In this document: in pieces, positions 812-28,459 of the stretch
Numbering within the stretch: position 1 is the first letter of the stretch
Layout: every line of letters starts with the position of its first letter
Notes under the pieces: generated by a model
The model's input: only the letters and a program-made list of their open reading frames with translations
Told to the model about the DNA's origin: nothing
The model's database searches: none
Source of the DNA: an uncultured Nitrososphaeraceae archaeon
GTDB taxonomy: Archaea > Thermoproteota > Nitrososphaeria > Nitrososphaerales > Nitrososphaeraceae
Reading direction: 5' to 3'
Length of the DNA: 64,000 nt
NCBI GenBank assembly: GCA_963779615.1
Contig: CAVZZA010000001.1
Coordinates: forward strand, 288,001 to 352,000
Made by a program: the position numbers and the translations under genes

Positions 812-1808
812 TTATTCCCTCATATTAGAGTTAGACTTTGTTACCTTTGAAACTATATAAATTGCAATTACATTGATTAAAAGAGTCAGTATAAATAATA
901 CTAGTCCAAGGCCTATTAAGGCTGACAGCTGATAATTACCCGAGGCTTCATTGAATTCATTTGCAATAATACTTGACAAGGTTTGACCTGGGGAAAATAA
1001 GGAAGTTGGAATTGCAGATAAACCTACTGCATTACCAATAATCATAGTCACTAGAATTGTTTCGCCAATGGCTCTGCCCAATCCCAAAAATGATGCGCCC
1101 AGTAAACCAGATTTCCCATAAGGAAGAATAGCCGTTTTAACCATCTCCCAGCGAGTTGCGCCAAGCGCATATGCAGCTTCTTTTTGCGAATGAGGGACCG
1201 CTTTGATAACTTCTCGCGAAACAGCAGATATAATGGGAATAATCATTATTGCAAGAACTATGCCTGCAGTGAATACATCAAGTCCGAACGGAGTTCTGGC
1301 GAAAATTGATAAATTATCGCCAAATGTGTTATGGAGAGGCATTTCAATATAGTCTCTCAGATAAAATCGAAATACAAATAATGCCCATAGTCCATATACA
1401 ATACTTGGAACTGCGGCAAGTAATTCAACGACAAAAGATAGAACAGTGACCAATTTTCCTTGTTACCATTTCATTAACAAAAATTGCGATTCCTATACTG
1501 ATTGGAACTGCAATAGCCATCGCAATGACAGAGCTAACCAGTGTTCCCACAATATAAGGCAGTGCACCAAATGATTCTCGACCCTCTACAGCATTCCAAT
1601 CAGTTCCAATAATAAAATTTATGCCTTCTTTAAATAAAATTGGGAGGGAACCTTCAGTTAATGCGTAAAAAACAAGAAAAACCATAAACAAAGCATAAAT
1701 TGAAGCTCCAATTACTAGTGCTTTAAAAAATTTATCTCCAGATTTGGATCCGTTTGATTTTGACCGGATTGTCTGAACAACCTTTACCTTATGATCCTTT
1801 AAACTCAA
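812..1808 (-). CDS. pstC: Phosphate ABC transporter permease PstC, split by a +1 frameshift near 1450
   Basis: ORFs 1425-1808 and 812-1453 join as ...MVTRKIG|TVLSFVVELLAAVPSIVYGLW if one base is removed; EAAYALGATRWE and GRAIGET motifs present. Confidence 0.9.
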
Positions 1809-1831
1809 TGTTAACTTTACATAAATACATA

Positions 1832-1881
1832 TTATTAATATAAATTGCCTATATGATGTATATAGAATAACTGAACTATTT
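1832..1881 (-). promoter_or_regulatory. pstC promoter: TATA-like element plus CTATAT-type units at 1849, 1858, 1876
   Basis: + strand reads ttattaatataaattgcCTATATgatGTATATAGaataactgaaCTATTT, in the pstS-pstC intergenic region. Confidence 0.6.
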
Positions 1882-1890
1882 AGAAAAAAA

Positions 1891-2989
1891 TTATTTGGTG
1901 GAAATTGGATTTCCTTTAAAGGTTAAAGAATTCAATGTTTGGTTATTTAGTTCAACTACAGAACTAGGTAGCGGAACATATCCCAGTGGTGCTGAAAACT
2001 TTTGACCATCGGTTATAGCCCATGATATGAAATCAACAATAGCTGTTGCCTTTTGCTGATTTATAGTCGGATTTGCGCTTAATTCTTTATACAAGATGAG
2101 GTATGTGAGACTTGAGATAGGGTAAGAATCATGGCCTGGCGCGTTTGTGATTGTTACATTAGTCCACGAATCAGAGCCTTTTGGGAAAGTAGTGGCAGTT
2201 GCATCAACTGCAGCTATAGTGGAATTTATAGTCGGTAGAACAAAATTGCCATCTTTATTTTGAATAGTAGCATAGTTCATTTTTGAAGTTAAAGCATATG
2301 CAAGTTCTACATAACCAATAGAAAATTCTGAGCCTTTAATTGAAGCCGATACTCCCTCGTTACCTGGGGCACCTATGCCGTTTGGCCATGGTACTGATTT
2401 TGAAGTTCCCATCTTTTCAGACCATTCGGGGCTTACTTTAGATAGATAATCTGTAAACACAAATGTTGTACCAGAACCGTCAGAGCGATGAACTGTGTTT
2501 ATAGATTGTGAAGGCAAAGTAAGAGTTGGGTTTAACGCTTTAATTTTAGGATCATCCCATTTAGCGATTTTTCCTAAAAATATATCTGCAATTACAGGGC
2601 CTGATAATTTAAGGGAATTATCAGGAACTCCAGGCAAATTATATGATAGCACAACAGATCCAATGGTTTCTGGAATATGGACAGGGTTCACTGCTTTAGC
2701 AAATTCTGATTTGCTCAGAGGAGCATCTGTTGCCCCAAAATCAACAGTTTTTTCTAAAAATTGTTTAATTCCGCCTCCACTGCCAATAGATGCATAATTA
2801 ATATTTACATCAGGATTAACTTTTTTTGTACTCTACTCTCCATGTGTCTATTAAAGGAAATGGAAAAGTAGCTCCTGCACCATTAAGTGTTACTTGTTGT
2901 GCATTGACTGAATTAATCACAAGGGGCATTAACAACGCCGCCGTTAACAATGCCACACCGATCTTTTTAAAATTAGATATATTTGTCAT
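1891..2989 (-). CDS. pstS: Phosphate-binding protein PstS, frameshifted in an A7 run at 2821-2827
   Basis: ATG at 2989 gives a signal peptide and LNGAGATFPFPL. After removing one A the frame continues YASIGSGGG...HRSDGSGTT...GYVE...YPI. Confidence 0.92.
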
Positions 2990-3009: not shown

Positions 3010-3059
3010 CTTATAAATCAATTATCTATATGATTACCATAAACTATATGCATCTAGTT
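3010..3059 (-). promoter_or_regulatory. pstS promoter: TATA box plus CTATAT units at 3026, 3044 (weaker unit at 3054)
   Basis: TTTATAAG on the minus strand ~25 bp upstream of the ATG, with CTATATG repeats further upstream. Confidence 0.6.
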
Positions 3060-5123: not shown

Positions 5124-5309
5124 CACATCTTTTTTATCCATGTGAGCCCGGGTCATAATTCATAACTAATAAAGCTAGCCTAGAGGAGTATCATATTTTG
5201 GTGAAACAAACTACAATACAAAAGAATAGCAACAAATTGTTCATCATCCATTCTAATTGGCATTTTGCATACCATAGGGTTGATTGACTGCCAAGCAGGG
5301 ATAATCAGG

Positions 5310-5720
5310 CTAAAAGTCATTGTCGCCGCCGCCGTCCTGAAACAGCGGAAGCGCCTTTTGCACGGTGAAAAGAAGCCCTTTGGCGTTGATGCCGAATGCC
5401 TTGTCGAAGTGGTCTTCAGAGGTTTCCCCCAGGGGGGTCCAATTCCCCAATGCCGGCGTTGGCGAACAGAATGTCTATGTGGCCCTTCTGTCCCTCCTTC
5501 ACAGTGGCATACAGCATGTCAAGGTCCGCATGGTTTGAGACGTCCCCCTGTACACCGGCGATGCTTTTGCCTATTCGCCTGACTGCCGAATCGAGTTCGC
5601 TTTGGCGGCGACCGGTGATGAACACATATGCGCATCTTCTACAAACCGCTTGGCCGTGGCAAGGCCAATGCCGCTGGTTCCGCCCGTTATGACCTCAACT
5701 TTTCCTTCCGGCCTTTTCAG
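5310..5720 (-). pseudogene. Short-chain dehydrogenase/reductase fragment, frameshifted and GC-rich
   Basis: [17 protein letters not shown] / [10 protein letters not shown]...GDVS...DILFANAG / [22 protein letters not shown] spread across frames; no C-terminus. Confidence 0.8.
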
Positions 5721-5916
5721 GGTATTCTAATCGTAACGGTAGACTTTAAGTTTGCAAAGGCGGAGAAAGAGACGTTTGGTCCCTACGTTTACTAGATTTG
5801 CGGTTATATGAGACGCCGGCTAATTTCCTTTCCAACGGCAATGGCTGATTGGTTTGCTGCATTTGGATAATGGCCAAAACGAGAACCCATATCTGACATA
5901 TGGGGCATATAGTGTC

Positions 5917-7679: not shown

Positions 7680-8121
7680 GCAAGTAACGTCAAATTATCC
7701 AGTATATAAGAATGATGAAAAGGATAACACACTAGTAGCGTGTGGTAACATTATGGAGTGAAATAGTGAAAGCATTAGCAGAATTGATTCACAAGACACT
7801 ATGAGACATCAAATAGGACAATACTCAGCAGCCCATCTACAACACACTAAAGTGTCAACATTCTCTTTCTCTTTTCCTCCATCTCTTCTTCAAGTTTTAG
7901 CTTCTGCGAATGCATACACCATATGTGATTATTGTTTAAAGGTCTTATAGTCTCTAATACTAATGTTATAATAAAGTGTAATATGGACAAACCCCGCATT
8001 AGAGCAAACCCGTGCATCAACAAAAATCAGGATGATGTTTTTGTCTCACTGGCAGTCACCTACCACTATCATATACCTTGCGGATAAAAGAGTTATTGAA
8101 GGCACCAAACTAGCACTCCTA

Positions 8122-8174
8122 TTTAGATACCATTCATTTTTGAATCACATCCCACCGGGCCCGCTTCAATAATT
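8122..8174 (+). repeat. Direct repeat copy 1 containing a tRNA-Arg-like 3' end (att-like site)
   Basis: 21-bp perfect core CACATCCCACCGGGCCCGCTT at 8146-8166 is also at 10924-10944; the flanks are similar too. Confidence 0.8.
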
Positions 8175-8476
8175 AACGCTTTTTTCGGCCCAAGTTTAGT
8201 GTATTTATCCTAAATGACAGTAGAGCTAAAAAACCACCGAGAACAAGTTTTCAATGTACCGTATAATCGGTTTTTGTAGGCATTAAAGTACATGAATCCC
8301 AAAGGCAATATCCAAAGCGACTAGAGGTTTTTCTTAACTTTGTAAAGATAGAAGGCTCAACCTTAGAGGAAAAACTCTTAGCCTGTATAATAAATCCAAA
8401 TCAAATACAGAATGGCTGCAGGATTCTTTAACCAACTTTATTGCTTTCAATGTTTTCCAGTTTTTCAACAACGCCT

Positions 8477-10240
8477 TTACCCTGGACTCTTAAATGCAGC
8501 CTTGGGAAAGCCAATCTTTATTGGATGCCTAAAAGATGAGTGAATCATGACCAATTCCCCCCTGTTTAACCTGACGATGTTGTTTTTTGTGCTTTCATCC
8601 AGGTTTGAATATGGCTCTGTGGATAACTCAGATATTCCTAATTTCCCTGTTATGTGTAATCCAGTATTTTCCTGTAACTTGTAGTCGGTAGCGCTTTTGA
8701 ACTGCTGCGCAGAAAACAGAATTGTCCCTCTGGATCTTCCCGCAATTATGGTTCTCATGATCTGATCTGAAACTGCACTTTTTCCAAAAGGGGATTTGGG
8801 TATGTATCTGTTAATCTCGTCAATAAACACAAAAATATATGGAGGCTTTTCTTTGTTTTTGATCCTGTCGCCTGTATCGCCATTTGCGCTGTCATTAGGG
8901 GAATCAAACGGGCTTGAAGAGTACAATTCATCGATGCTTTTCATCACATCCCCGACAACAAACGCTTGTTCCTCCACAGAAGATATTGTCGCCACATCTA
9001 TCACAAAGACCTGGCCTGATTTGATTTTCCTTATTTCCCCGCCAAGGTAAGTGCTTGTCACTTTTTTGTCAATGAACATTGGGGACCTCCTCATTCTTTG
9101 TAGTTGACCTAAAAAGTGCAACAGGGAGGATTTGTGTGAGACTATCGATTCGGGATATCCACTAAATTCATACAAGTCAGTCCATGTTCTTATCTCCTTT
9201 CCAGTGTTTTCCCTTAGTGGCCAGGATTCATAGATGTAATCTATGATTGATGAGAGGTTAAAACGGGTGTCATATGCCTCATAGAATAGCAATTCAAGCC
9301 TATCGTAAACATCCTGCAACTCATAGGAGTATGTTTTGAAATTTTTTGGTATGTGCATAGAATTGGGCCTGCCATCTTTGCCTCTTGGCAAAAAATAAAC
9401 TACATTCTCAAAAGGCTCCAACTCCAAATCAAGGATGTTAAATAAATCTTCTGTTCTCTCCTTGATGTCTGTTGGTTTTTGGTCTATGTGTAGCAGATCC
9501 TGTTCCTTGGTGTTGAAAATGACCAGTGCTATGTTCTCCTTCTTCTTTTCAAAAAGTGTTTGATAAGCCGATTGCAATAGAAACAAAATGTAATTGCTTT
9601 TCCTATTTCCTGAAATCCCTGAAGCATTTACGTGTGCTGTATCGGGACCAGCCAAATAAGTCAATGCTAATGAAATGGGAACCTGCAAGCCATTTGTTGT
9701 TTCTATAACCCCTGCAGGAATCGGGTCTACCATTTCTGGAATTCCTAGAGCGAAAATAATCTCATCTTCTGTGGCAAATCTAACGGGTTTGCCTATGCCT
9801 ACTGGAAAGTTTATAGAAATAGCCTCCTTACGGCCTTCCACTTTTGCCCCAGTGTTTGCCATTATCCCCACTTTTGCCAATACCGACCCTTTTGGGGAAT
9901 CGCTGCATAATATTTGTTCTTGTTTTTCTGGGTCCTTTTGGCAATCCGTAACATAATCAGCATAAACATTTTCTGCAACTGCCTGCAACTCCTTTACAAT
10001 CCCGATTGTTTTGCTGTTGTGCAAATTGTCAACTGTAACAAAATCAAAAGAGTTTACCATTGTGTTGGGCTTAACGGCAAACCAGAAGCCATCCATGTTG
10101 TTGAGGAATCTTTTTGATGCTATGGTTTTTCCAACATCCTCAGGTGAGCTTGAATCCGTCGAAATCTTTTCGTCATTCAGATTTGCTGGTGTTGACCTGA
10201 TTAAATGAGCAACCTCATCTTTCTGGTACTTTAAACTCAT
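8477..10240 (-). CDS. HerA/FtsK-superfamily ATPase with HAS-barrel-like N-terminus
   Basis: HVNASGISGNRKSNY (Walker A region), IFNTK, FIDEINRY (Walker B) and GRSRGTILFSAQQ. Confidence 0.8.
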   Translation of the reverse strand: MSLKYQKDEVAHLIRSTPANLNDEKISTDSSSPEDVGKTIASKRFLNNMDGFWFAVKPNTMVNSFDFVTVDNLHNSKTIGIVKELQAVAENVYADYVTDCQKDPEKQEQILCSDSPKGSVLAKVGIMANTGAKVEGRKEAISINFPVGIGKPVRFATEDEIIFALGIPEMVDPIPAGVIETTNGLQVPISLALTYLAGPDTAHVNASGISGNRKSNYILFLLQSAYQTLFEKKKENIALVIFNTKEQDLLHIDQKPTDIKERTEDLFNILDLELEPFENVVYFLPRGKDGRPNSMHIPKNFKTYSYELQDVYDRLELLFYEAYDTRFNLSSIIDYIYESWPLRENTGKEIRTWTDLYEFSGYPESIVSHKSSLLHFLGQLQRMRRSPMFIDKKVTSTYLGGEIRKIKSGQVFVIDVATISSVEEQAFVVGDVMKSIDELYSSSPFDSPNDSANGDTGDRIKNKEKPPYIFVFIDEINRYIPKSPFGKSAVSDQIMRTIIAGRSRGTILFSAQQFKSATDYKLQENTGLHITGKLGISELSTEPYSNLDESTKNNIVRLNRGELVMIHSSFRHPIKIGFPKAAFKSPG

Positions 10241-10318
10241 TGTTTATACTTAATGAGAGAAATTTATTAATATAGATTACATATAGAAAGAATATAGAAT
10301 AAACATAAAGTAAGTTAA

Positions 10319-10480
10319 CTATATAGGAGAAAAATATTGTGTGGAAACTGGTTTTCCGCTAAGGGCCAGGGAATTCAATGTATGTTTGTCTAGGTCTACC
10401 ACGGAGGAGGGTAATGGAACATATCCCAATGGTTTTGAATACTTTTGTCCATCGGTGATAGCCCAAGTTATAAAATCAAC
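10319..10480 (-). pseudogene. pstS: PstS C-terminal remnant
   Basis: Translates VDFITWAITDGQKYSKPLGYVPLPSSVVDLDKHTLNSLALSGKPVSTQ, versus PstS VDFISWAITDGQKFSAPLGYVPLPSSVVELNNQTLNSLTFKGNPISTK. Confidence 0.9.
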
Positions 10481-10899
10481 ATCATTATCCACCGACATTT
10501 ACACTGCAATAATTATAATGGTGGCGTTAATCAAGATAATAACCTATTTGGCTTCAGAATATGTATCAAAAAGAACCACCTGTAACCAATTAGATGATTA
10601 AATGCCATATTCTTGTCGGCCAAAGTTGTCATGTCCATCATTACGAACTTCTCCTAACTTCTGTTGAAATGGCAATAATTATTCAGTTGGCAGTTAGCTT
10701 GACCGGCAAATGCAAGAAATACCGTAATGTGGATTGCAAACTTCGTGTTAACGTGGATGTTGACTTTGTAAAATATTGCCGGTAAGTGATTTTATGGTAA
10801 TGTAGTTGCGATGAGCTTCAACAATAACCTAGTCAAGTTCTTTTTTAGATGTTAAATAGAAGATGTCTTATAACATTTATTTAAATACAGTAAACCTAG

Positions 10900-10952
10900 T
10901 TTAGGTTTCATTCACTTTTGAGACACATCCCACCGGGCCCGCTTAAATAATG
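10900..10952 (+). repeat. Direct repeat copy 2 containing a tRNA-Arg-like 3' end (att-like site)
   Basis: Core at 10924-10944 is identical to 8146-8166. Confidence 0.8.
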
Positions 10953-10978
10953 AAAAATGATTAGTTAAATACAATTAT

Positions 10979-11683
10979 TTATAGACTATATTTTTTCCTA
11001 AATGTTGAGGCGATGATGGACGTTCCCATAAAGGTGGCGGTCCAATACAGCCATAGGTTTTCCACCATTCCCCCCGACAACAAAGCAGGGGCCAAGGACC
11101 TGGCAGGGTTCATTGATGCTCCGGATATAAATGCCAAAAAGAATATGTCCAAGCCAACGATTCCAGCAATAACAATACCGCCAAAACCTCTCAAGCCCTT
11201 TGTATATACCACCACCAAGATTACAGCCATCAATAAAGCAGAAGCCAATACCTCCACCCCAAATATCAAAGGCAAAGGATACGCATAGTTCGGTGAGTTG
11301 GCCCCCAGAAAAGCCTCATTCCCTATGGCATACTTTACAAACAAGCTTGCCAATAGCGCCCCTATTATCTCTGCAGATATGTAAAGCAGCAACTGCCTTT
11401 TTGTTATGTGCTTTGTAATCAGGAAACCCAAGGTCACGGCAGGGTTAAAATGCGCCATGGAGATTTTGCCAAACAGGTATACGCCTATCGCTACTCCAAC
11501 AAATGGCGCAAATGCAATAAAGGGAATTCCCAATACCCCGTTCATTTTGGCGTCAATAACTACAGAGCCAGTGGCCAATACCACGACAATAAAAGTTCCA
11601 ATTACCTCAGCAATAAACTTCTTTTGGCTTGAGGACAGGTTATCCCTCAATGTTGTGACCAGGCTATTTGTTGCGTTTTTCAC
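10979..11683 (-). CDS. MIP/aquaporin-family channel in an arsenic cluster
   Basis: Two NPA motifs (HFNPAVT, SMNPARSLAPA); six hydrophobic segments. Confidence 0.92.
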   Translation of the reverse strand: MKNATNSLVTTLRDNLSSSQKKFIAEVIGTFIVVVLATGSVVIDAKMNGVLGIPFIAFAPFVGVAIGVYLFGKISMAHFNPAVTLGFLITKHITKRQLLLYISAEIIGALLASLFVKYAIGNEAFLGANSPNYAYPLPLIFGVEVLASALLMAVILVVVYTKGLRGFGGIVIAGIVGLDIFFLAFISGASMNPARSLAPALLSGGMVENLWLYWTATFMGTSIIASTFRKKYSL

Positions 11684-11753
11684 CGTCTTCTCTTCTCTTC
11701 TGTTAGTTTACAACCTGATTTTCCATGACAACATATAAAATATTGTGTAAGCT

Positions 11754-12209
11754 TTAGTTTTCCTTCTCATCTTTGCCAATTTGTTCTACTGCTTCCTTTA
11801 TTCTCCTCTTGATTTCATCCCTTATCTCCCTTACCTTTTCTATGGGCTTGTCCTTAGGGTCCTCAATTCCCCAGTCCACAACTTTAGGGACAAATAAAGT
11901 AGGGCAGAAATCTTTATCCATGCATCCCATGTTGATTATTTTTGTTGCGTTTCTTATCATGTCTTCGGTAAGCTCCTTTGGTTTTTGGCTGCGGATATCT
12001 ATACCAATTTCTTTCATCACGTCTACAGCAACGGGATTGATTTGGGATTTATGGCGTGTCCCGGCGCTTATTGGTTCATAATCGTCGGTACCATACTTTC
12101 TAAAAAAGCCCTCTGCCATTTGGCTGCGCCCTGCATTCTCTACACACACAAAGAGTATCATCTTTTTTGTTTTGTTTTCAGCATATTTACTTTTGAATGA
12201 GAGCTTCAT
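11754..12209 (-). CDS. arsC: Arsenate reductase, LMW-PTP family
   Basis: LFVCVENAGRSQMAEG, SAGT, MGC...CP and WGIEDP motifs. Confidence 0.88.
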   Translation of the reverse strand: MKLSFKSKYAENKTKKMILFVCVENAGRSQMAEGFFRKYGTDDYEPISAGTRHKSQINPVAVDVMKEIGIDIRSQKPKELTEDMIRNATKIINMGCMDKDFCPTLFVPKVVDWGIEDPKDKPIEKVREIRDEIKRRIKEAVEQIGKDEKEN

Positions 12210-12237
12210 TTTTCAATGCCATCTTGTTTTTTTATTG

Positions 12238-13026
12238 TTATTTAATCGCCTTCACAGCAAGGCTGGTAATTTTTCTTCCCCCCCCACCATTCCCTTCCAT
12301 CTCGGTGTATGGTTTTTCATCCAGCGCCTCAACATTGGTAAACCCTGCTTCCCTTATGGCATTGACATAGTTTTCTTTTGTTAATGCGCCATCAATGCAA
12401 CTGCACCAATTATCCGCATTTACAGAGTACTCGTTCATTTCTTTAGATGTGACCAAATCCGATATCACCATTTTTCCAATCCCATTTGGCTCTAGAATCC
12501 TGTGTATCTCGAATGCATCTACCTTATTGGATGCAAGGTGGATAACGCAATTGCTTATGACTACATCTGCACTGTTATCCTCAACAAGTATTCTTTTCTC
12601 AATGTCCCCTTGCCGGAACTCTACGTTTTTGTAATTGTATTTTTTAGCGCTATTTCTTGCTTTTTCTAAAATCTTATCCGTCATGTCTATTCCAACGACC
12701 TTTCCGTTATCCTTGACAATATTGGCAGCCAAGAACACATCAATGCCGGCCCCCGAACCCAAGTCAACTACCGTATCTCCCTCTTTTATATGGGCAAATT
12801 TTGTGGGGTTACTGCATCCTACCCCCAGAATAGCGGGTTGGGGTATGGCCGCCAATTCCTCTGAATCATAACCGATTGCTTTTGAAGAATTAATTTGGGA
12901 ATCGACATTATTTTCAGGACTGCAACATTCTGAAGGCATGCAACAAGAATCTGAATTACCAAATACGGCGATTGTGCCACATCTTTCTTCGATTTTATTC
13001 TTTATGTTTTTGTCACTAGTGGTCAT
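12238..13026 (-). CDS. arsM: Arsenite S-adenosylmethionine methyltransferase
   Basis: N-terminal CC...CC, LGVGCSNP, DLGSGAGID, SNCVI and WCSCIDGA. A few substitutions in conserved positions could indicate early decay. Confidence 0.85.
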   Translation of the reverse strand: MTTSDKNIKNKIEERCGTIAVFGNSDSCCMPSECCSPENNVDSQINSSKAIGYDSEELAAIPQPAILGVGCSNPTKFAHIKEGDTVVDLGSGAGIDVFLAANIVKDNGKVVGIDMTDKILEKARNSAKKYNYKNVEFRQGDIEKRILVEDNSADVVISNCVIHLASNKVDAFEIHRILEPNGIGKMVISDLVTSKEMNEYSVNADNWCSCIDGALTKENYVNAIREAGFTNVEALDEKPYTEMEGNGGGGRKITSLAVKAIK

Positions 13027-13030
13027 ACCT

Positions 13031-13049
13031 TAGTTTACATTAGAAACTA
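13031..13049. promoter_or_regulatory. Palindromic candidate operator TAGTTT-N7-AAACTA between arsM and the HxlR gene
   Basis: Inverted repeat lying between the arsM start and its TATA-like element. Confidence 0.4.
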
Positions 13050-13081
13050 TTTAAGTTGGTAAGAGTAAAATAGTAAAGCAA

Positions 13082-13519
13082 GTGAAATCAGGTAAACAAA
13101 AGGGTTCTAAAGCAGTCAATAGAAATGATTTATCCAAGGATAGCGCATCCAAGTTACCAACTGTTCACAATGATAATAATTCTTGCGATTTCAAAGGATA
13201 CGATGTTGATGTATTGATGAAAGAAACATCATCGCTAAGAAAATTAGTAACAAAGAGAGGAACACTAGAAATTTTGTTACCATTGTGTTGTACTACCGAT
13301 TCTGTAAGATACCTAAAATTCAAAAAAACAATGAAGGGTTTCAGCAGCAAAACCCTTGCAACAAGGTTAAAAGAGCTAGAAAGAAGTGGAATTTTAAACC
13401 GACAAGCATACAACGAAATCCCACCCAGGGTAGAATATCGATTGACAGCAAAGGGACAAGAATTAACAGAATCCATAGTGGGTTTATTGCAATGGATGAT
13501 TAAATGGTCAACAAAATAA
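13082..13519 (+). CDS. HxlR-family winged-helix regulator
   Basis: GFSSKTLATRLKELE...EIPPRVEYRLTAKGQEL motif; divergent from arsM. Confidence 0.9.
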   Translation: MKSGKQKGSKAVNRNDLSKDSASKLPTVHNDNNSCDFKGYDVDVLMKETSSLRKLVTKRGTLEILLPLCCTTDSVRYLKFKKTMKGFSSKTLATRLKELERSGILNRQAYNEIPPRVEYRLTAKGQELTESIVGLLQWMIKWSTK

Positions 13520-16030: not shown

Positions 16031-16066
16031 GTATATAGTCTATATTCATCTATATAGTCTATATCG
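16031..16066. promoter_or_regulatory. Four-unit CTATATAG-like array (16031, 16040, 16050, 16059) in the divergent CHAD / kinase intergenic region
   Basis: Contains a perfect 14-bp direct repeat TATATAGTCTATAT at 16032 and 16051. Confidence 0.7.
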
Positions 16067-16180: not shown

Positions 16181-16939
16181 ATGCAAAATAATAAAACAAA
16201 ATCTAGTAAAGACATTGGAACTCTCATAGTGGTTGAGGGGATAGATGGGTCTGGAAAGTCAACTCAAATACACCTGCTGGATAAGTGGTTGAGATCAAAA
16301 GGGTATAACGTTTTTTTTACCGAGTGGAACTCTTCCGCATCTGTTAAGGAAATTACCTCCAAGGGCAAGAAAAAGGCCATGTTGACCCCAACAACTTTTT
16401 CTCTCCTTCATGCAACGGATTTTGCTGACAGGTATGAAAGGAATATTTATCCGCTGTTGAGGGCGGGGTACATCGTGCTTGCGGACAGGTACGTCTATAC
16501 CGCGTTGGCAAGGGACATTGTTAGGGGATGCGACAAGGGATGGGTGGAAAACATCTACAAGTACGCAATTAAACCGGACATAATTTTTTATTTTCAGGTG
16601 CCTGTAGAAACTGCAGTCAACAGAATCATAACAAGCAGGCCAAAACTAAAATATTATGAGGCTGGAATGGACTTAAAGTTAAGCAAGGATGAACATGAAA
16701 GCTACAGGATATTCCAAGGGAGAATCGTTGATGAATATGAATCAATGGTAAACCCGGAGGGGTTCACAGTAATTGACGGCACCATGGACATTGAAAAACA
16801 ACAAAACTTGGTAAGAAAACGCGTATTAAAGTCCCTAGGCAACAAAAAAACACTCCTGGGTGACACACTTCAAGAAGGCAACGATATAAAAGTGGTGACA
16901 AGAAACGAAACCAAAAAAGCCAATCAGCAAAAACAATAA
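16181..16939 (+). CDS. Thymidylate-kinase-like protein, probable PPK3 catalytic-type subunit
   Basis: VEGIDGSGKST, TEWNSS, LLHATDFADR, LADRY, YYEAGMD and FQGRI motifs; tandem with a second Tmk-like gene. Confidence 0.8.
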   Translation: MQNNKTKSSKDIGTLIVVEGIDGSGKSTQIHLLDKWLRSKGYNVFFTEWNSSASVKEITSKGKKKAMLTPTTFSLLHATDFADRYERNIYPLLRAGYIVLADRYVYTALARDIVRGCDKGWVENIYKYAIKPDIIFYFQVPVETAVNRIITSRPKLKYYEAGMDLKLSKDEHESYRIFQGRIVDEYESMVNPEGFTVIDGTMDIEKQQNLVRKRVLKSLGNKKTLLGDTLQEGNDIKVVTRNETKKANQQKQ

Positions 16940-16940
16940 A

Positions 16941-17645
16941 ATAAAGTTCATAGATACAGGAATAAAGTATCTTCAGGACATAGAGATAAAGGGGTCTTTT
17001 GTAGTGATAGAGGGTCCCGATGCATCAGGAAGAAGCACACAGATTGAAAAAATAACAACAAAACTTGAGGCTGACGGGCATGCTGTTGTAAATGCAGGGT
17101 TGCGGAGATCGGATCTTGTTTCCAAAGGGATTATGGAGGCAAAAAGAAATTATTTGATAGGGAATAGGACAATGACCCTTTATTACGCGGCAGATTTTGC
17201 AGACCAGCTGGAAAAAAAAATCATTCCGGCGCTAAAGGCAGGTTTCATTGTGATTTCTGACAGATACATATACACACTGATAGCGAGAAGCTCTGTCAGG
17301 GGAATAGACAAAAACTGGCTGCACAGCTTATTTAGTTTTGCCATCAAACCGGATTTGGTTTTCCATTTGGATGTAGATCCGCATAACTTGATACACAGGG
17401 TGTTTCAGAAAAACTACTCCCTGGACTATTATGAGTCGGGGGTTGATCTTGGGATTTCCAGCGACATTTTTGACTCATTCATAAAATACCAGTATGCACT
17501 GAAAAGGGAGTTTGAAAGGATGAGGGCAAGGTATAACCTGATTAACATAGACGGCAATGAAAGCATTGAGAAGGTGTACCAGCAAATCCAATCACAGATA
17601 GACGACTTTTTAATATCGGAAAACAAGGAAACGGTAATAAGGTGA
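16941..17645 (+). CDS. Second thymidylate-kinase-like protein, probable PPK3 regulatory-type subunit (start uncertain)
   Basis: Variant P-loop EGPDASGRST, YAADFADQLE, SDRY and DYYESGVD. The frame is open from 16899 with no ATG/GTG/TTG before 17004. Confidence 0.78.
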   Translation: MKFIDTGIKYLQDIEIKGSFVVIEGPDASGRSTQIEKITTKLEADGHAVVNAGLRRSDLVSKGIMEAKRNYLIGNRTMTLYYAADFADQLEKKIIPALKAGFIVISDRYIYTLIARSSVRGIDKNWLHSLFSFAIKPDLVFHLDVDPHNLIHRVFQKNYSLDYYESGVDLGISSDIFDSFIKYQYALKREFERMRARYNLINIDGNESIEKVYQQIQSQIDDFLISENKETVIR

Positions 17646-18555: not shown

Positions 18556-19590
18556 TAGATCTCGCATAATTAGCATAAACAGATTTATGACCATCAGATC
18601 ATTAATTCATGTCCTTTCCTTGCTCTCATATGACAGGTTGTCCAAAAACCCATTGCTTTTCAAGTCATCCACCGGCTGACGGTAAAGGAGTTTGATGACA
18701 TTATGATATGAAGATGTTAAAAAGACAAGGCAAGCATGAGATCAGGCGATTATCCAAAAGAAATGATAGTAGAAAACGATCCATGGGTGCTGGGCGACAT
18801 TTCAAGATGGATGTTAAAAACAGGCTCCTGGTGCTTTTGGGCTACTATTGCCGCCTTTACACAACCTACCCGTTGGCCGGCTTTTTGTTTGACTTGGACC
18901 AGAGTAACGTCTGCAGGGATATTCAAAAGATTGAGTCGCGGGTAAGAAAATGCCTGCCAATTCCGCAAAAGACGCACAGATTGTCAAAAAGGATGCTCAC
19001 ACCAGAAGGGGTTGAAAAAATGTTTCCAGGCTTTCTGTCCTTCATAGACCGCACAGAACAGCAGATACCAATGCCTCACAAAAAAAGAAGAAAGGCGTAT
19101 TATTCAGGCAAGAAGAAAAGGCATACCGTAAATACACAGCTCATGGTTAACAATCAGGGTATCATCATTCACAAAACAGGCCACAAGAAAGGAAAAAGGT
19201 ATGACTACAACATATATAAAAATAATCACCCTGTGATTCTAATGCAAGTTGTCAGCGTGTTTGACCGTGGTTATCGAGGTTGAGAGAGACTTTCCTGACC
19301 AAAAGTCATCCTTGCCAAACAGAAAGATGAGAAACCAAGAGTTGACTCAAGAGGAAAATAAGTACAACCAGAACCACTCTAAAAAAAAGATGGTGATAAA
19401 GTATACCATTTGCAAGATGAAAAAGGACAGGATAATGGGCTACATCTTTAGAAACAGTCTCAAAAAGTATGACAAGATATCAGACATAGTTTCAGGACTG
19501 GTAAACTACAGAGCATTGTCATCTTTTTAGATAGGCATCAGTCTTGCCGTACTGATGGGACATACTGTTTCTGATTATGCAAAAGATCTA
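18556..19590 (+). mobile_element. Degraded IS5-family (ISL2-like, HTH + DDE_Tnp_4) element
   Basis: Frameshifted transposase (GAGRHFK, FLFDLDQSNVCRDI, YYSGKKKRHT, D.GY.G); imperfect IRs TAGATCT.GCATAAT at 18556 and ATTATGCAAAAGATCTA ending at 19590. Confidence 0.85.
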
Positions 19591-24306: not shown

Positions 24307-25215
24307 TTATGCTTGTTATCGTTTTCATTTACGAGTGGCATCGGTCTATCATAAGAACAAGAATAAACAGACATTAACAAATATTCCAGATGAACATGGG
24401 ATGAAATTGTTTCAGTTTTACCAAGGAAAAACCCGATAATGCGATTGGTCGTCCAATTGTTCCCTACAGAAAAGTAGTGGACGGTATTCTATACATCCTA
24501 AGAACAGGGTGCCAGTGGAAGATGCTGCCTGCAGAGTATGGTTCAGGTTCAACATGTCATCGACGATTTCAGGGGTGGGCGGGGTTAGACATTTTCAAAA
24601 AGGCATGGATCAGGTTGTTGCAATCATATGATAACAAACAAGGTATCAAGTGGACATGGCAATCGCTTGACAGCATATCCATAAAGTCTCCTTTAGGTGG
24701 GCAATGACCGAAGGAAGCAATCCCACTGACAGAGGCAAACTGGGCACAAAAAGGCATGTTTTAACGGATACAAAAGGAATCCCACTCTCAGTTGTCATAT
24801 CATCCGCAAGCACTCATGATACAAAACTAGTAACAGATGTAATGGATAATACAATTATCAAACGATCATCATCATCAAAGAAACGTAAATTATCCAGAAA
24901 AAGAAAACTGCAACACCTGTGTCTTGATAAGGCGTACAGTTCCAAGACAGTAAAACAGGAAATCATCAACCGAGGATATGTGCCGCATTTACCGTACAAG
25001 AGAAAAAGAGGAGAGGGCAAGACAGAAACACAAAAGATGTCAAATCGAAAAAAACATCCTGCCAGAAGATGGGTTGTGGAAAGAACCAACTCATGGCACA
25101 ACCGATTTAGAAAACTGCACACAAGATATGAGAGGAAAGCAGAGAACTATCTTGGGTTGGTACAGTTCTCATGTTGCATCATCATCTACAGAAAGATAGT
25201 TTTGGGATAGGCTCT
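24281..25215 (+). mobile_element. IS5-family (IS427-like) element with two overlapping transposase ORFs
   Basis: Perfect 16-bp IRs AGAGCCTATCCCAAAA (24281-24296 / 25200-25215); TA target duplication; [20 protein letters not shown] and RWVVERT motifs. Confidence 0.93.
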
Positions 25216-26776: not shown

Positions 26777-27688
26777 TTATAAAAAATTGTTGTCGGCATC
26801 TAAAAGATCAGATTTACAATATTGGACGAACTCGTCATATTTGTTTTTTCTTATCATGGCAATATTATTTTCAGCGATAACGCTGTTATGTGTATTATGT
26901 CGTTTTAAACAGGCAGTTGTTATATCATAATCATGAACGTTTCCAAGCATATCCTGAATTTTTTCTAATTTATCTATCAGGCTAGAAACATTATGATTAT
27001 CTTCATGATCGTTCTTATCAACTACCTCATTTTCGTCAATACTTTCTTTATTCTTATCCTTATTGCTTAAAACAAGCTCCAGTAAATAACGCAATTTCTT
27101 GGCATCCTTTCTTATCTCATGTAACTCCTCAATTTTTTCGCTATTGTTGATTACAATGGGAAAGTTTTTCTCCATTCTGCAGACAAATTTACCAACAATT
27201 TTATTATATCTTTTAATTAATTTCTTTTGCACCGTACCACGTTCATATAGCTTATTATCGTTATTTATATGGGTAACATTTAACTTTCTTAGGCCAATGG
27301 CAACGGATAACGCCTTATCAAGTTTCCTATTTTTTTGTCTTTTAATTGATTTACTTAGTATTTCAAGCTGTTGTTCATCCATCTGCCCTTCCTTGTTTAA
27401 CTTTTCTAGAACAATATCAAAATCCCTGATTTCACTATTTAGTTTAAAAAGGCGTTTGCTATTAAATACATATTTTTTTATTCTTTTTTTCCGGATTTGC
27501 TTTGGGCTGGCGCTATACGATGCTTCTAGCCTTCTAAATGCTGTTCGTATATCGTGAATGTTTTCTTCATTAGGATCTTTAATGTACTCATTCAATCTCT
27601 TGCCTACCTTTTGGATATTATGGACATAGTTATCAAAAAAAGTATCTAAATTAATAGAATGCGGTATATCAAAAATTAACCTTGACAC
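26777..27688 (-). CDS. CHAD-domain (polyphosphate-binding) protein
   Basis: IHDIRTAFRRL, IRDFDI, LHEIRKDAKKLRYLLE and IQDMLGNVHDYD motifs. Confidence 0.92.
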   Translation of the reverse strand: MSRLIFDIPHSINLDTFFDNYVHNIQKVGKRLNEYIKDPNEENIHDIRTAFRRLEASYSASPKQIRKKRIKKYVFNSKRLFKLNSEIRDFDIVLEKLNKEGQMDEQQLEILSKSIKRQKNRKLDKALSVAIGLRKLNVTHINNDNKLYERGTVQKKLIKRYNKIVGKFVCRMEKNFPIVINNSEKIEELHEIRKDAKKLRYLLELVLSNKDKNKESIDENEVVDKNDHEDNHNVSSLIDKLEKIQDMLGNVHDYDITTACLKRHNTHNSVIAENNIAMIRKNKYDEFVQYCKSDLLDADNNFL

Positions 27689-27862
27689 AGATAAAACAAT
27701 ACACTTGAAATTATTTTAATATTTTACTACAAATAAAATAAAAAAACTCCCGGCATGTATTCAGTAGTACATATAAAAACATCGATTTGACACCAATTAG
27801 TTTGAATGGCATTATAATCCTATCAAAATATGACATTATTCAACATATACGACTATATTCTA

Positions 27863-28459
27863 TTACCCCTCCTTTGTCTTTATTTTCCTTAAAATGGAGT
27901 TTCTTACAAAGTCACTTGTCACAGATTTTGGTATGTTACAATATGATGAAATACATTCTGTTATTTTATTTGAGCATGTTATATTTTTACACAAAGATAG
28001 ATTTTCTTTAAAGGATTTGACTGGATCTTGGGATGAAAAAGCCCATGTCAGCATCATTCCTAGAACTTTTTCTTTTACATGTGGAGGCTTTTCTGATAGC
28101 AAAGCATTTAATTCATCCATTGAAGGAGCCAATTCTCCAATACCGTCATAATAAATGTCGTCATCACTTTTAGAATCAATGTCAGTGTTTTTCCTACATT
28201 TGGACTGAGAATTAAACATACCATTGTTGTTTAATTCCTTATCCCCGCTCTGAAGATCATTACTACCCTCTGTTTTCAGGTCACTGGAAGACGGCACAAG
28301 AGGTCCATGGGAATATACCAAATTGTTTGACTTATTGTATATCTCTCCTTGGTTATCATGTACATCTTTATTGTGGCGAAAAGCATTCCATTTCCTATCG
28401 AAAGTATTTCCACAACCAGAACAATAATATGGCGAGTTTTTCAAATATACCCTTTTCAC
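27863..28459 (-). CDS. C2H2 zinc-finger protein
   Basis: YYCSGCGNTFDRKWNAFRHNKDVH followed by a helical C-terminal domain. Confidence 0.75.
   Translation of the reverse strand: MKRVYLKNSPYYCSGCGNTFDRKWNAFRHNKDVHDNQGEIYNKSNNLVYSHGPLVPSSSDLKTEGSNDLQSGDKELNNNGMFNSQSKCRKNTDIDSKSDDDIYYDGIGELAPSMDELNALLSEKPPHVKEKVLGMMLTWAFSSQDPVKSFKENLSLCKNITCSNKITECISSYCNIPKSVTSDFVRNSILRKIKTKEG

Follow-up and report, generated by a model that had tools for sequence, protein, structure and literature searches.

A gene on the minus strand of a 64,000-nucleotide stretch of an uncultured Nitrososphaeraceae archaeon, a soil ammonia oxidiser (assembly GCA_963779615.1, contig CAVZZA010000001.1, positions 288,001 to 352,000 of the forward strand; hereafter, the window) is a chimera. 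In its sequence, a HerA-family ATPase is preceded by the 3′ end of pstS, the intergenic block between pstS and pstC and 16 codons from the start of pstC. The pst piece is joined in frame to ATPase codon 4 at a 10-nt in-phase microhomology. The features of the window on which the argument turns all lie on the minus strand, as follows.

8477-10240, minus strand: chimeric ATPase gene, an open reading frame (ORF) of 587 aa with an ATG start, encoding a HerA-family P-loop ATPase (Walker A lysine K214, Walker B D474/E475).
10193-10240, minus strand: PstC-derived first 16 codons (MSLKYQKDEVAHLIRS), the cytoplasmic tail that precedes the first hydrophobic stretch of PstC.
10181-10197, minus strand: fusion junction GGTCAACACCAGCAAAT, at the microhomology yCA-AAA-yCA-A, common in phase to pstC codons 16-18 and ATPase codons 4-6.
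10241-10333, minus strand: captured pstS-pstC intergenic block, with conserved boxes, a TATA-like element and an 11-nt insert.
10334-10481, minus strand: pstS remnant, the last 48 codons, in frame, stop codon lost; the stop-to-stop frame is 10319-10498 and its first codon is ATG.
8446-10194, minus strand: stretch homologous to the ATPase copy on contig C3 (G000:C3:151957-153704), 90.7% identical over 1753 nt; mosaic, with the main breakpoint near 9842.
1760-2038, minus strand: resident counterpart, i.e., the pstS 3′ end, an 82-nt spacer (1809-1890) and the pstC 5′ end (TTG start at 1808); Pfam PBP_like_2 and BPD_transp_1 match the flanking ORFs.

In the resident pst operon, pstS extends from about 3010 to 1891 and is followed, after the spacer, by pstC (1808-812) and pstA (from 810). 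The chimeric ORF is about 8 kb away, and its pst homology comprises the first 48 nt of the ORF and 240 nt upstream. The original prediction had reported, from the letters alone, that the ATPase 5′ region resembles the pstS/pstC junction, and the alignments bear this out. Segment 10192-10481 is 71.7% identical to 1760-2038 over 293 columns, with an E value of 1.0e-40 in a blastn comparison of 3.4 by 3.6 kb and of 2.4e-37 against the whole 3.17 Mb genome; tblastx of the pstS remnant region against the resident gene gives 5e-24. The details of that prediction were also recovered: the promoter block matches at 32 of 39 ungapped positions (10264-10302 versus 1832-1870), the N-terminus MSLKYQKDEVAHLIRS is identical to the resident PstC start MSLKDHKVKVVQTIRS at 9 of 16 residues, and 35 of the 48 residues of the PstS remnant are those of the resident C-terminus. 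Chimera residues EVAHLIRS equal the pstC start of two relatives, G005 and G016, as translated by eye from the DNA alignment. Only the chimera and the resident operon match the pst junction sequence, a third matching place being absent from the genome, and no pst similarity outside 10192-10481 was found to either side of the chimera.

The pst homology stops at 10192 and the homology to the C3 ATPase begins at 10194; hence the junction is a true one. The microhomology is visible in a three-way comparison of codons: CGG-TCA-AAA-TCA-AAC in pstC, GAG-CCA-AAA-CCA-ATA in the C3 copy, and AGG-TCA-ACA-CCA-GCA in the chimera.

The second ATPase copy, on C3, encodes 574 residues and begins MDEPKPINFNAEK. 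In this copy and in five close orthologues, the N-terminus is of the type ...EP(K/I)..N(F/Y)N..; their alignment to the window protein begins only at residue 18, and none of the six has the 16 PstC-like residues. Thus, the PstC-like start of the chimera is derived. On C3, the start of the ATPase gene overlaps the end of a hemerythrin-like gene (Pfam Hemerythrin) by 22 nt. A JGI metagenome contig, L047, gives a comparison. Its hemerythrin-like gene, at 243-878, has DNA 82% identical to the gene upstream of the C3 ATPase, and it is followed by a 528-nt insert, the last 250 nt of which are the pst piece, and then by a chimeric ATPase. Counterparts of the C3 stretch CAAAACCAATAAATTT flank the L047 insert on both sides. 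On the simplest reading, the boundary between the hemerythrin-like and ATPase genes is where the pst piece went in, and C3 would keep the ancestral, uninserted arrangement. The present genome has both alleles, the uninserted one on C3 and the chimeric one in the window, a second locus.

The chimera is found elsewhere. Four metagenome proteins from JGI and ENA (P0001-P0004, 585-590 aa) begin (M/L)SLNDH(K/R)DE..RSK(P/T)K. They span residues 1-140 of the window protein fully, with 74-81% identity, and are the only ones to do so among the 120 matches listed. The junction RSK|PKN is common to these proteins and L047. L047 has a junction of the window type and the intergenic boxes, with a stretch of about equal length where the window has its 11-nt insert. 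Its pstS remnant is shorter and has indels, including a 2-nt deletion that shifts the frame to a stop (the frame was judged by eye). The start codon is ATG in the window chimera and TTG in L047; in the alignment, all 20 pstC genes have TTG. In a tree, the chimeric pst fragments of the window and L047 are sisters with 97% bootstrap support. The junction is absent from 33 other species-representative genomes of the genus (26 of 34 match the query, none past query position 309) and from 237 others of the family (28 of 238 have a match, always restricted to one side). The fusion thus defined is shared with at least five other lineages, and the chimera is old and maintained in several lineages.

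These data alter one claim of the original prediction, namely, that the ATPase sits where pstC sits in a pst operon. It does not: only 290 nt of pst sequence are present, there is no flanking pst remnant, and the L047 piece is an insert in a hemerythrin-ATPase pair. The chimera lies outside any pstSCAB gene cluster, although the genus-conserved block upstream of pstC is present in it. Nor is the product a PstC; it has no BPD_transp_1 membrane domain (no Pfam match), and its PstC part is confined to residues 1-16. It had also been proposed to look for orthologues with the PstC-like N-terminus outside pst loci. Such orthologues exist (L047 was seen as DNA, P0001-P0004 only as proteins); however, their location does not refute capture, since the same pst fragment accompanies the ATPase in L047.

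What was the donor of this sequence? Against each of the pst loci in 20 genomes of the genus, the captured piece shows 72-77% identity. That is, it is no recent copy of the resident operon, in keeping with the old event suggested by the original prediction. The tree places the chimeric pst fragments near the G003/G018 group and not with the resident operon, but in an approximately unbiased (AU) test, monophyly with the resident pst was not rejected (p 0.123). The AU result is therefore compatible with a foreign origin and with an old origin in the own lineage. A 487-nt metagenome contig (X1, record 5) carries a pstS 3′ end 90% identical to remnant positions 10330-10481 (15 differences in 152); none of the 20 genus pst loci in the comparison is as close. 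The contig extends as ordinary pstS on one side and, on the other, as 41 letters of spacer lacking the 11-nt insert. A closer donor-type pst operon may thus exist, the contig being a lead only.

The genome's only pst operon has two +1 frameshifts relative to intact relatives, in pstS near 2824 (an A7 run where relatives have A6) and in pstC near 1447 (GGTCAC versus GGCAC or GGTAC). These are either assembly errors or signs of a decaying operon. No second pstS was found in the genome.

The chimeric gene did not remain apart from its uninserted sister. Its identity to the C3 copy ranges from 75% to 99% in 40-codon windows. With L047 as the chimera reference, the 5′ part (to about 9842) shares 37 sites with L047 and 20 with C3; beyond that point, the 3′ part shares 3 with L047 and 33 with C3. 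The maximum chi-squared value of 28.8 was reached by none of 1000 permutations. Partition trees agree: for residues 20-133 the window protein groups with the chimeras, with weak support (65-71%), and for residues 134-400 with C3 and the metagenome protein P0005 (99%). The window copy is thus a mosaic, chimera-like in its 5′ third and overwritten by conversion from the C3 copy in its 3′ two thirds. Over the whole gene, the comparison with C3 gives a ratio of nonsynonymous to synonymous substitution rates (dN/dS) of 0.157 with dS at 0.32. Given the mosaic, the overall dS dates the last conversion and not the fusion, and conversion inflates the apparent constraint within converted tracts.

The captured block is analyzed next. 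Its elements are as follows.

10319-10327, minus strand: box CCTATATAG.
10306-10316, minus strand: 11-nt insert, lacking in all 20 pst loci compared.
10291-10299, minus strand: box TTCTATATT.
10280-10287, minus strand: box TCTATATG.
10264-10274, minus strand: TATA-like element TATATTAATAA, 24-34 nt before the ATG.

In the 20 genomes of the genus, the pstS-pstC spacer is highly conserved and reads TTTCTATATAG, 10 nt, CTATAT, TATATG and a TATA-like ATATTA. Of the 44 spacer columns conserved in at least 90% of these loci, the window chimera keeps 38 and L047 keeps 39. A position weight matrix (PWM) of the 35-nt core scores the chimera at 40.0 bits, the best in the genome, followed by the resident operon (33.8) and the next site (19.8), against a genome mean of -49 with a standard deviation of 12. 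No conserved or unusually stable RNA structure was found in the block (alifold -0.85 kcal; z-scores +1.3 to -1.9). For an archaeal promoter, a TATA-like element at this distance from the start codon (24-34 nt) would leave only a very short leader. We infer from the genus-wide conservation, the spacing of the TATA-like element and the lack of RNA structure that the captured block is a promoter. Capture of a promoter together with a start codon is the most likely mechanism, and we regard it as fairly probable. A scan for sigma-70 promoters and terminators stayed at background level, using a model that is not applicable to archaea. An RNA-library contig of X12 matches 10073-10222 at every position but reaches only about 28-30 letters past the junction; because a bridging contig was defined by at least 31 letters beyond it, this contig was counted neither as bridging nor as proof of transcription, and it carries no information on regulation.

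The region upstream of pstS carries related elements. Boxes of the CTATATAG type are conserved there in 17 readable regions of the 18 aligned, and the conserved pair is succeeded by TTGATTAATAA. This region is a candidate regulator site plus TATA box. In the window itself (3011-3050) and at homologous places in L025-L043, two palindromic boxes of this type lie about 18 nt apart, followed by AATTGATTAATAA.

A scenario that would account for the whole runs as follows. The pst piece would have entered as an insert of about 0.5 kb at the boundary of the hemerythrin-like gene and the ATPase gene, joined through the microhomology. The insert would have uncoupled the ATPase from the upstream gene and given it an archaeal promoter of its own, i.e., the TATA-like TATATTAATAA with upstream CTATAT-type boxes, which are conserved in the genus and present also upstream of pstS. 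It would also have provided the start codon. The 16 PstC residues would form a disordered tail, for which no separate function is expected, and the product would be a normal HerA-type hexameric NTPase expressed on the schedule of pstC. In the present genome, the chimera is a second copy at another locus, its 3′ two thirds converted by C3. In a broader version, a portable regulatory module from the pstS-pstC junction would have taken a HerA-family DNA motor out of joint expression with a hemerythrin-like sensor gene and placed it in the programme of phosphate uptake, and the allele would have spread to a second locus in another lineage, where it was kept beside the ancestral allele, both exchanging sequence by conversion. 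This broader version is held only tentatively and is rather unlikely to be right.

Several observations weigh against promoter capture. The pstS remnant of the window keeps 74 of 83 genus-conserved columns, versus 38 of 44 in the block. A non-functional remnant is thus kept about as well as the block, and retention in the window copy alone is no proof of selection on the block; the contrast is seen only in L047 (56 of 83 in the remnant versus 39 of 44 in the block). With the 11-nt insert, the first box stands 29 nt from the second instead of 18 nt, so that regulation could have been altered. The palindrome CTATATAG is not enriched, with 43 copies in the genome versus 28-205 for palindromes of like composition. 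Its clusters in the window (at 16050, 23433 and 28516) could not be linked to phosphate genes, their neighbours being thymidylate-kinase-like, small unknown and, in one case, CHAD-domain-associated genes. A literature search on Nitrososphaera pst promoters yielded, at the level of the listing, nothing on the transcription start, RNA level or regulator of the block. Last, no integrase lies between the two repeats that flank the chimera at its present locus, which are as follows.

8118-8176, plus strand: tRNA-3′-end-like repeat (...GAATCACATCCCACCGGGCCCGCT), direct copy 1, 85% identical to 10895-10954.
10895-10954, plus strand: tRNA-3′-end-like repeat, direct copy 2, on the opposite side of the chimera.

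Integrated elements of Thaumarchaeota usually target tRNA 3′ ends, according to the available part of one source (PMC6563490). The repeat family was aligned from 22 places in the genome, most with a common core; two resemble full tRNA genes, and no tRNA gene was found in the window. The repeats may be what is left of attachment sites once used by integrated elements, or else a mobile repeat that arose from a tRNA. Since an integrase is not present, element-borne transfer of the chimera is only a hypothesis. The abhydrolase gene that flanks the chimera is absent from close relatives, so that no empty site was found by synteny. Members of the family (...TTGAATCACATCCCACCGGGCCCGC) also occur at C5:515-521 kb, C1:627-630 kb and C1:646-648 kb of the genome, some in arrays 1-3 kb apart.

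The strongest alternative specifies the nature of the promoter: the captured block could be responsive to phosphate starvation, and the ATPase could be induced at low phosphate, e.g., to turn over or scavenge DNA or to serve in stress repair. The original prediction proposed such control. The genus has only one type of pst operon; the block derives from it and is conserved at each of the 20 pst loci examined. Further, CTATATAG-type boxes at 18-nt spacing are shared with the region upstream of pstS, the expected site of phosphate control, and by the PWM the block is better preserved in the chimera than in the resident operon. However, in bacterial pst operons the phosphate-responsive promoter normally lies upstream of pstS, and an internal pstC promoter could be constitutive. 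The box spacing has been altered by 11 nt, and the motif defined no phosphate-linked regulon. Phosphate control is a possible outcome, though a doubtful one.

Alternatively, the spacer might not be a promoter but an element acting at the RNA level or in termination, for instance as an oligo-T terminator after pstS, as a site of processing or as a region where translation is initiated. In that case, the chimera would have gained only a start codon and a 5′ untranslated region, and would be transcribed from further upstream. A T-run behind the pstS stop is found in 20 of 20 loci, with a weakened one behind the remnant, and the pstC start and first codons were captured along with the block. Against this, the block lacks conserved or unusually stable RNA structure, and its best-conserved positions are the AT-rich boxes and the TATA-like element, which stands at promoter distance. 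In addition, about 500 nt of repeat-derived DNA separate the remnant from the next upstream gene, encoding a MIP channel (10979-11683). We consider this alternative unlikely.

Less likely again is a neutral relic, i.e., a redundant duplicate kept C3-like by conversion alone, with the pst piece as a decaying scar. Conversion can mimic purifying selection in converted tracts, the accessory region is rich in repeats, transposase fragments and duplicated ars genes, and close relatives lack a syntenic equivalent of the flanking abhydrolase. But the ORF is intact, and its unconverted 5′ third is conserved with P0001-P0004 and L047 (74-81% amino acid identity over residues 1-140, with no stops). Moreover, five other lineages hold full-length or open chimeric genes, and the L047 chimera occupies the ancestral locus, so that it may be the sole copy there. 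Finally, a false join of pst-like and ATPase contig ends is so improbable that it can be set aside: although no DNA contig of X1, X2 or X3 bridges 10192-10194, the identical junction occurs in four independent metagenome proteins and in L047, and the pst piece and the ATPase, at about 72% and 90.7% identity to their respective counterparts (resident operon and C3 copy), are neither of them a collapsed repeat. The fusion is no assembly artefact, nor is it unique.

The original prediction called the ATPase HerA-like, and this label is upheld in sequence and in predicted fold. In a sequence search of the PDB, Deinococcus radiodurans HerA (7f6d/7wrw) is the sole match, with an E value of 1.2e-17 for the single sequence and 3.3e-18 for a profile. 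There is no Pfam match at E values up to 10 and no NCBIfam match up to 1; specifically, DUF87 (PF01935), the model of the HerA central domain, matches two other genes of the genome and not this one. PHROGs gives a marginal FtsK-like match (E 0.063). For structure, an AlphaFold2 (AF2) model built from 72 diverse relatives was used; a model from 28 close homologues, with a mean predicted local distance difference test score (pLDDT) of 34.3, was discarded unsearched. The model used has a pLDDT of 85.1 and a predicted template modelling score (pTM) of 0.84, with residues 1-30 at a pLDDT of about 40. It contains the three-domain HerA fold, that is, an N-terminal HAS barrel, a RecA-like core and an inserted helix-bundle domain. 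Foldseek matches it to 7wrw_A (E 9.9e-35, template modelling (TM) score 0.73, 625 alignment columns), then to archaeal and defence HerAs. K214, D474 and E475 are at least 90% conserved in the 72 relatives, with the deviant P-loop GISGNRKS. On its modelled fold, the protein is a HerA-family ATPase closest to Deinococcus HerA. From homology, our best guess is that the family would be a motor that processes DNA ends or nucleic acids.

Comparison with known HerA systems sharpens this placement. The unusual P-loop SGISG..K(S/T) is common to the ATPase and D. radiodurans HerA (7WRW, 7WRX, 7F6D), in which K175 and D487/E488 align with K214 and D474/E475. According to the available part of the report on the latter, these residues are needed for its ATPase activity (PMC9960219, BMC Biol 2023). 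Overall identity is only about 20%, and the studied ATPase has no adjacent NurA gene and has a foreign N-terminal tail and 5′ region. The sole NurA gene of the genome (PF09376, C3:1008529-1009179) is far from both ATPase copies and adjoins no large ATPase gene. Archaeal HerAs of the herA-mre11-rad50-nurA type (S. solfataricus 4D2I, T. kodakarensis 9X1M) have the same overall fold, with Foldseek E values of 1e-22 to 1e-24. The genome, however, has a separate canonical DUF87-type HerA adjoining an SMC_N (Rad50-like) gene (C3:1066273-1070274), and the studied ATPase therefore belongs to a different paralogue family. HerA partners in defence systems (Sir2-HerA/Nezha, DUF4297-HerA) also match the fold, with E values of about 1e-19 to 1e-20, and PADLOC gives a weak match to mad8 (1.2e-7); but no Sir2, DUF4297 or other effector gene lies beside any copy in the ORF lists and neighbour scans. 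Instead, hemerythrin-like, HSP20-like or phosphoesterase genes are the neighbours observed across copies. In distant members of the genus, a same-strand gene for a calcineurin-like phosphoesterase of 270-290 aa follows the ATPase in 10 of 13 loci (L010-L016, L019-L021), the other three having too little sequence past the ATPase match to judge. The phosphoesterase of the present genome (G000:C3:699452-700267) is unlinked from both ATPase copies. As to the pstSCAB operons, the 5′ module of the chimera is homologous to the genus pstS/pstC junction and keeps its conserved boxes, whereas the chimera has no transporter function, membrane segment, pstA or pstB.

To our knowledge, archaea offer few clear natural examples in which a promoter and a start codon were captured, and the evolution of archaeal promoters is poorly documented. 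The chimera is a clean example of regulatory rewiring in a known kind of protein. In this instance, one can see not only where the piece went in and from which type of donor it came, but also the microhomology at the junction, a sister allele that lacks the insert and the conversion that came afterwards. The genus-wide pstS-pstC block and the related block upstream of pstS are candidates for phosphate regulation in Nitrososphaera-type ammonia oxidisers, for which the chimera offers a second, independent readout gene. Should the block respond to phosphate, a DNA translocase would be tied to phosphorus starvation in soil ammonia oxidisers. The case also draws attention to an ATPase family without a curated model, a Deinococcus-type HerA in archaea with no NurA neighbour.

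Other features of the surrounding region are as follows. Beside the chimera, at 10979-13519, is an arsenic-type cluster comprising the MIP channel, a low-molecular-weight phosphatase (ArsC-like), an S-adenosylmethionine (SAM) methyltransferase and an HxlR regulator; partial paralogues are numerous elsewhere in the genome, with 71-87% DNA identity. In the region 5140-5760, repeat segments 5143-5334 and 5324-5759 recur on all five contigs with 78-89% identity, and the ORFs there resemble chance frames in G+C-richer DNA. Further along, segments 16181-17645, 18708-19283, 24704-25210 and 26777-28459 hold two tandem thymidylate-kinase-like genes, transposase fragments (DDE_Tnp_4 and DDE_Tnp_1) and a CHAD-domain gene; CTATATA-type boxes are clustered in front of the last of these, at about 28516.

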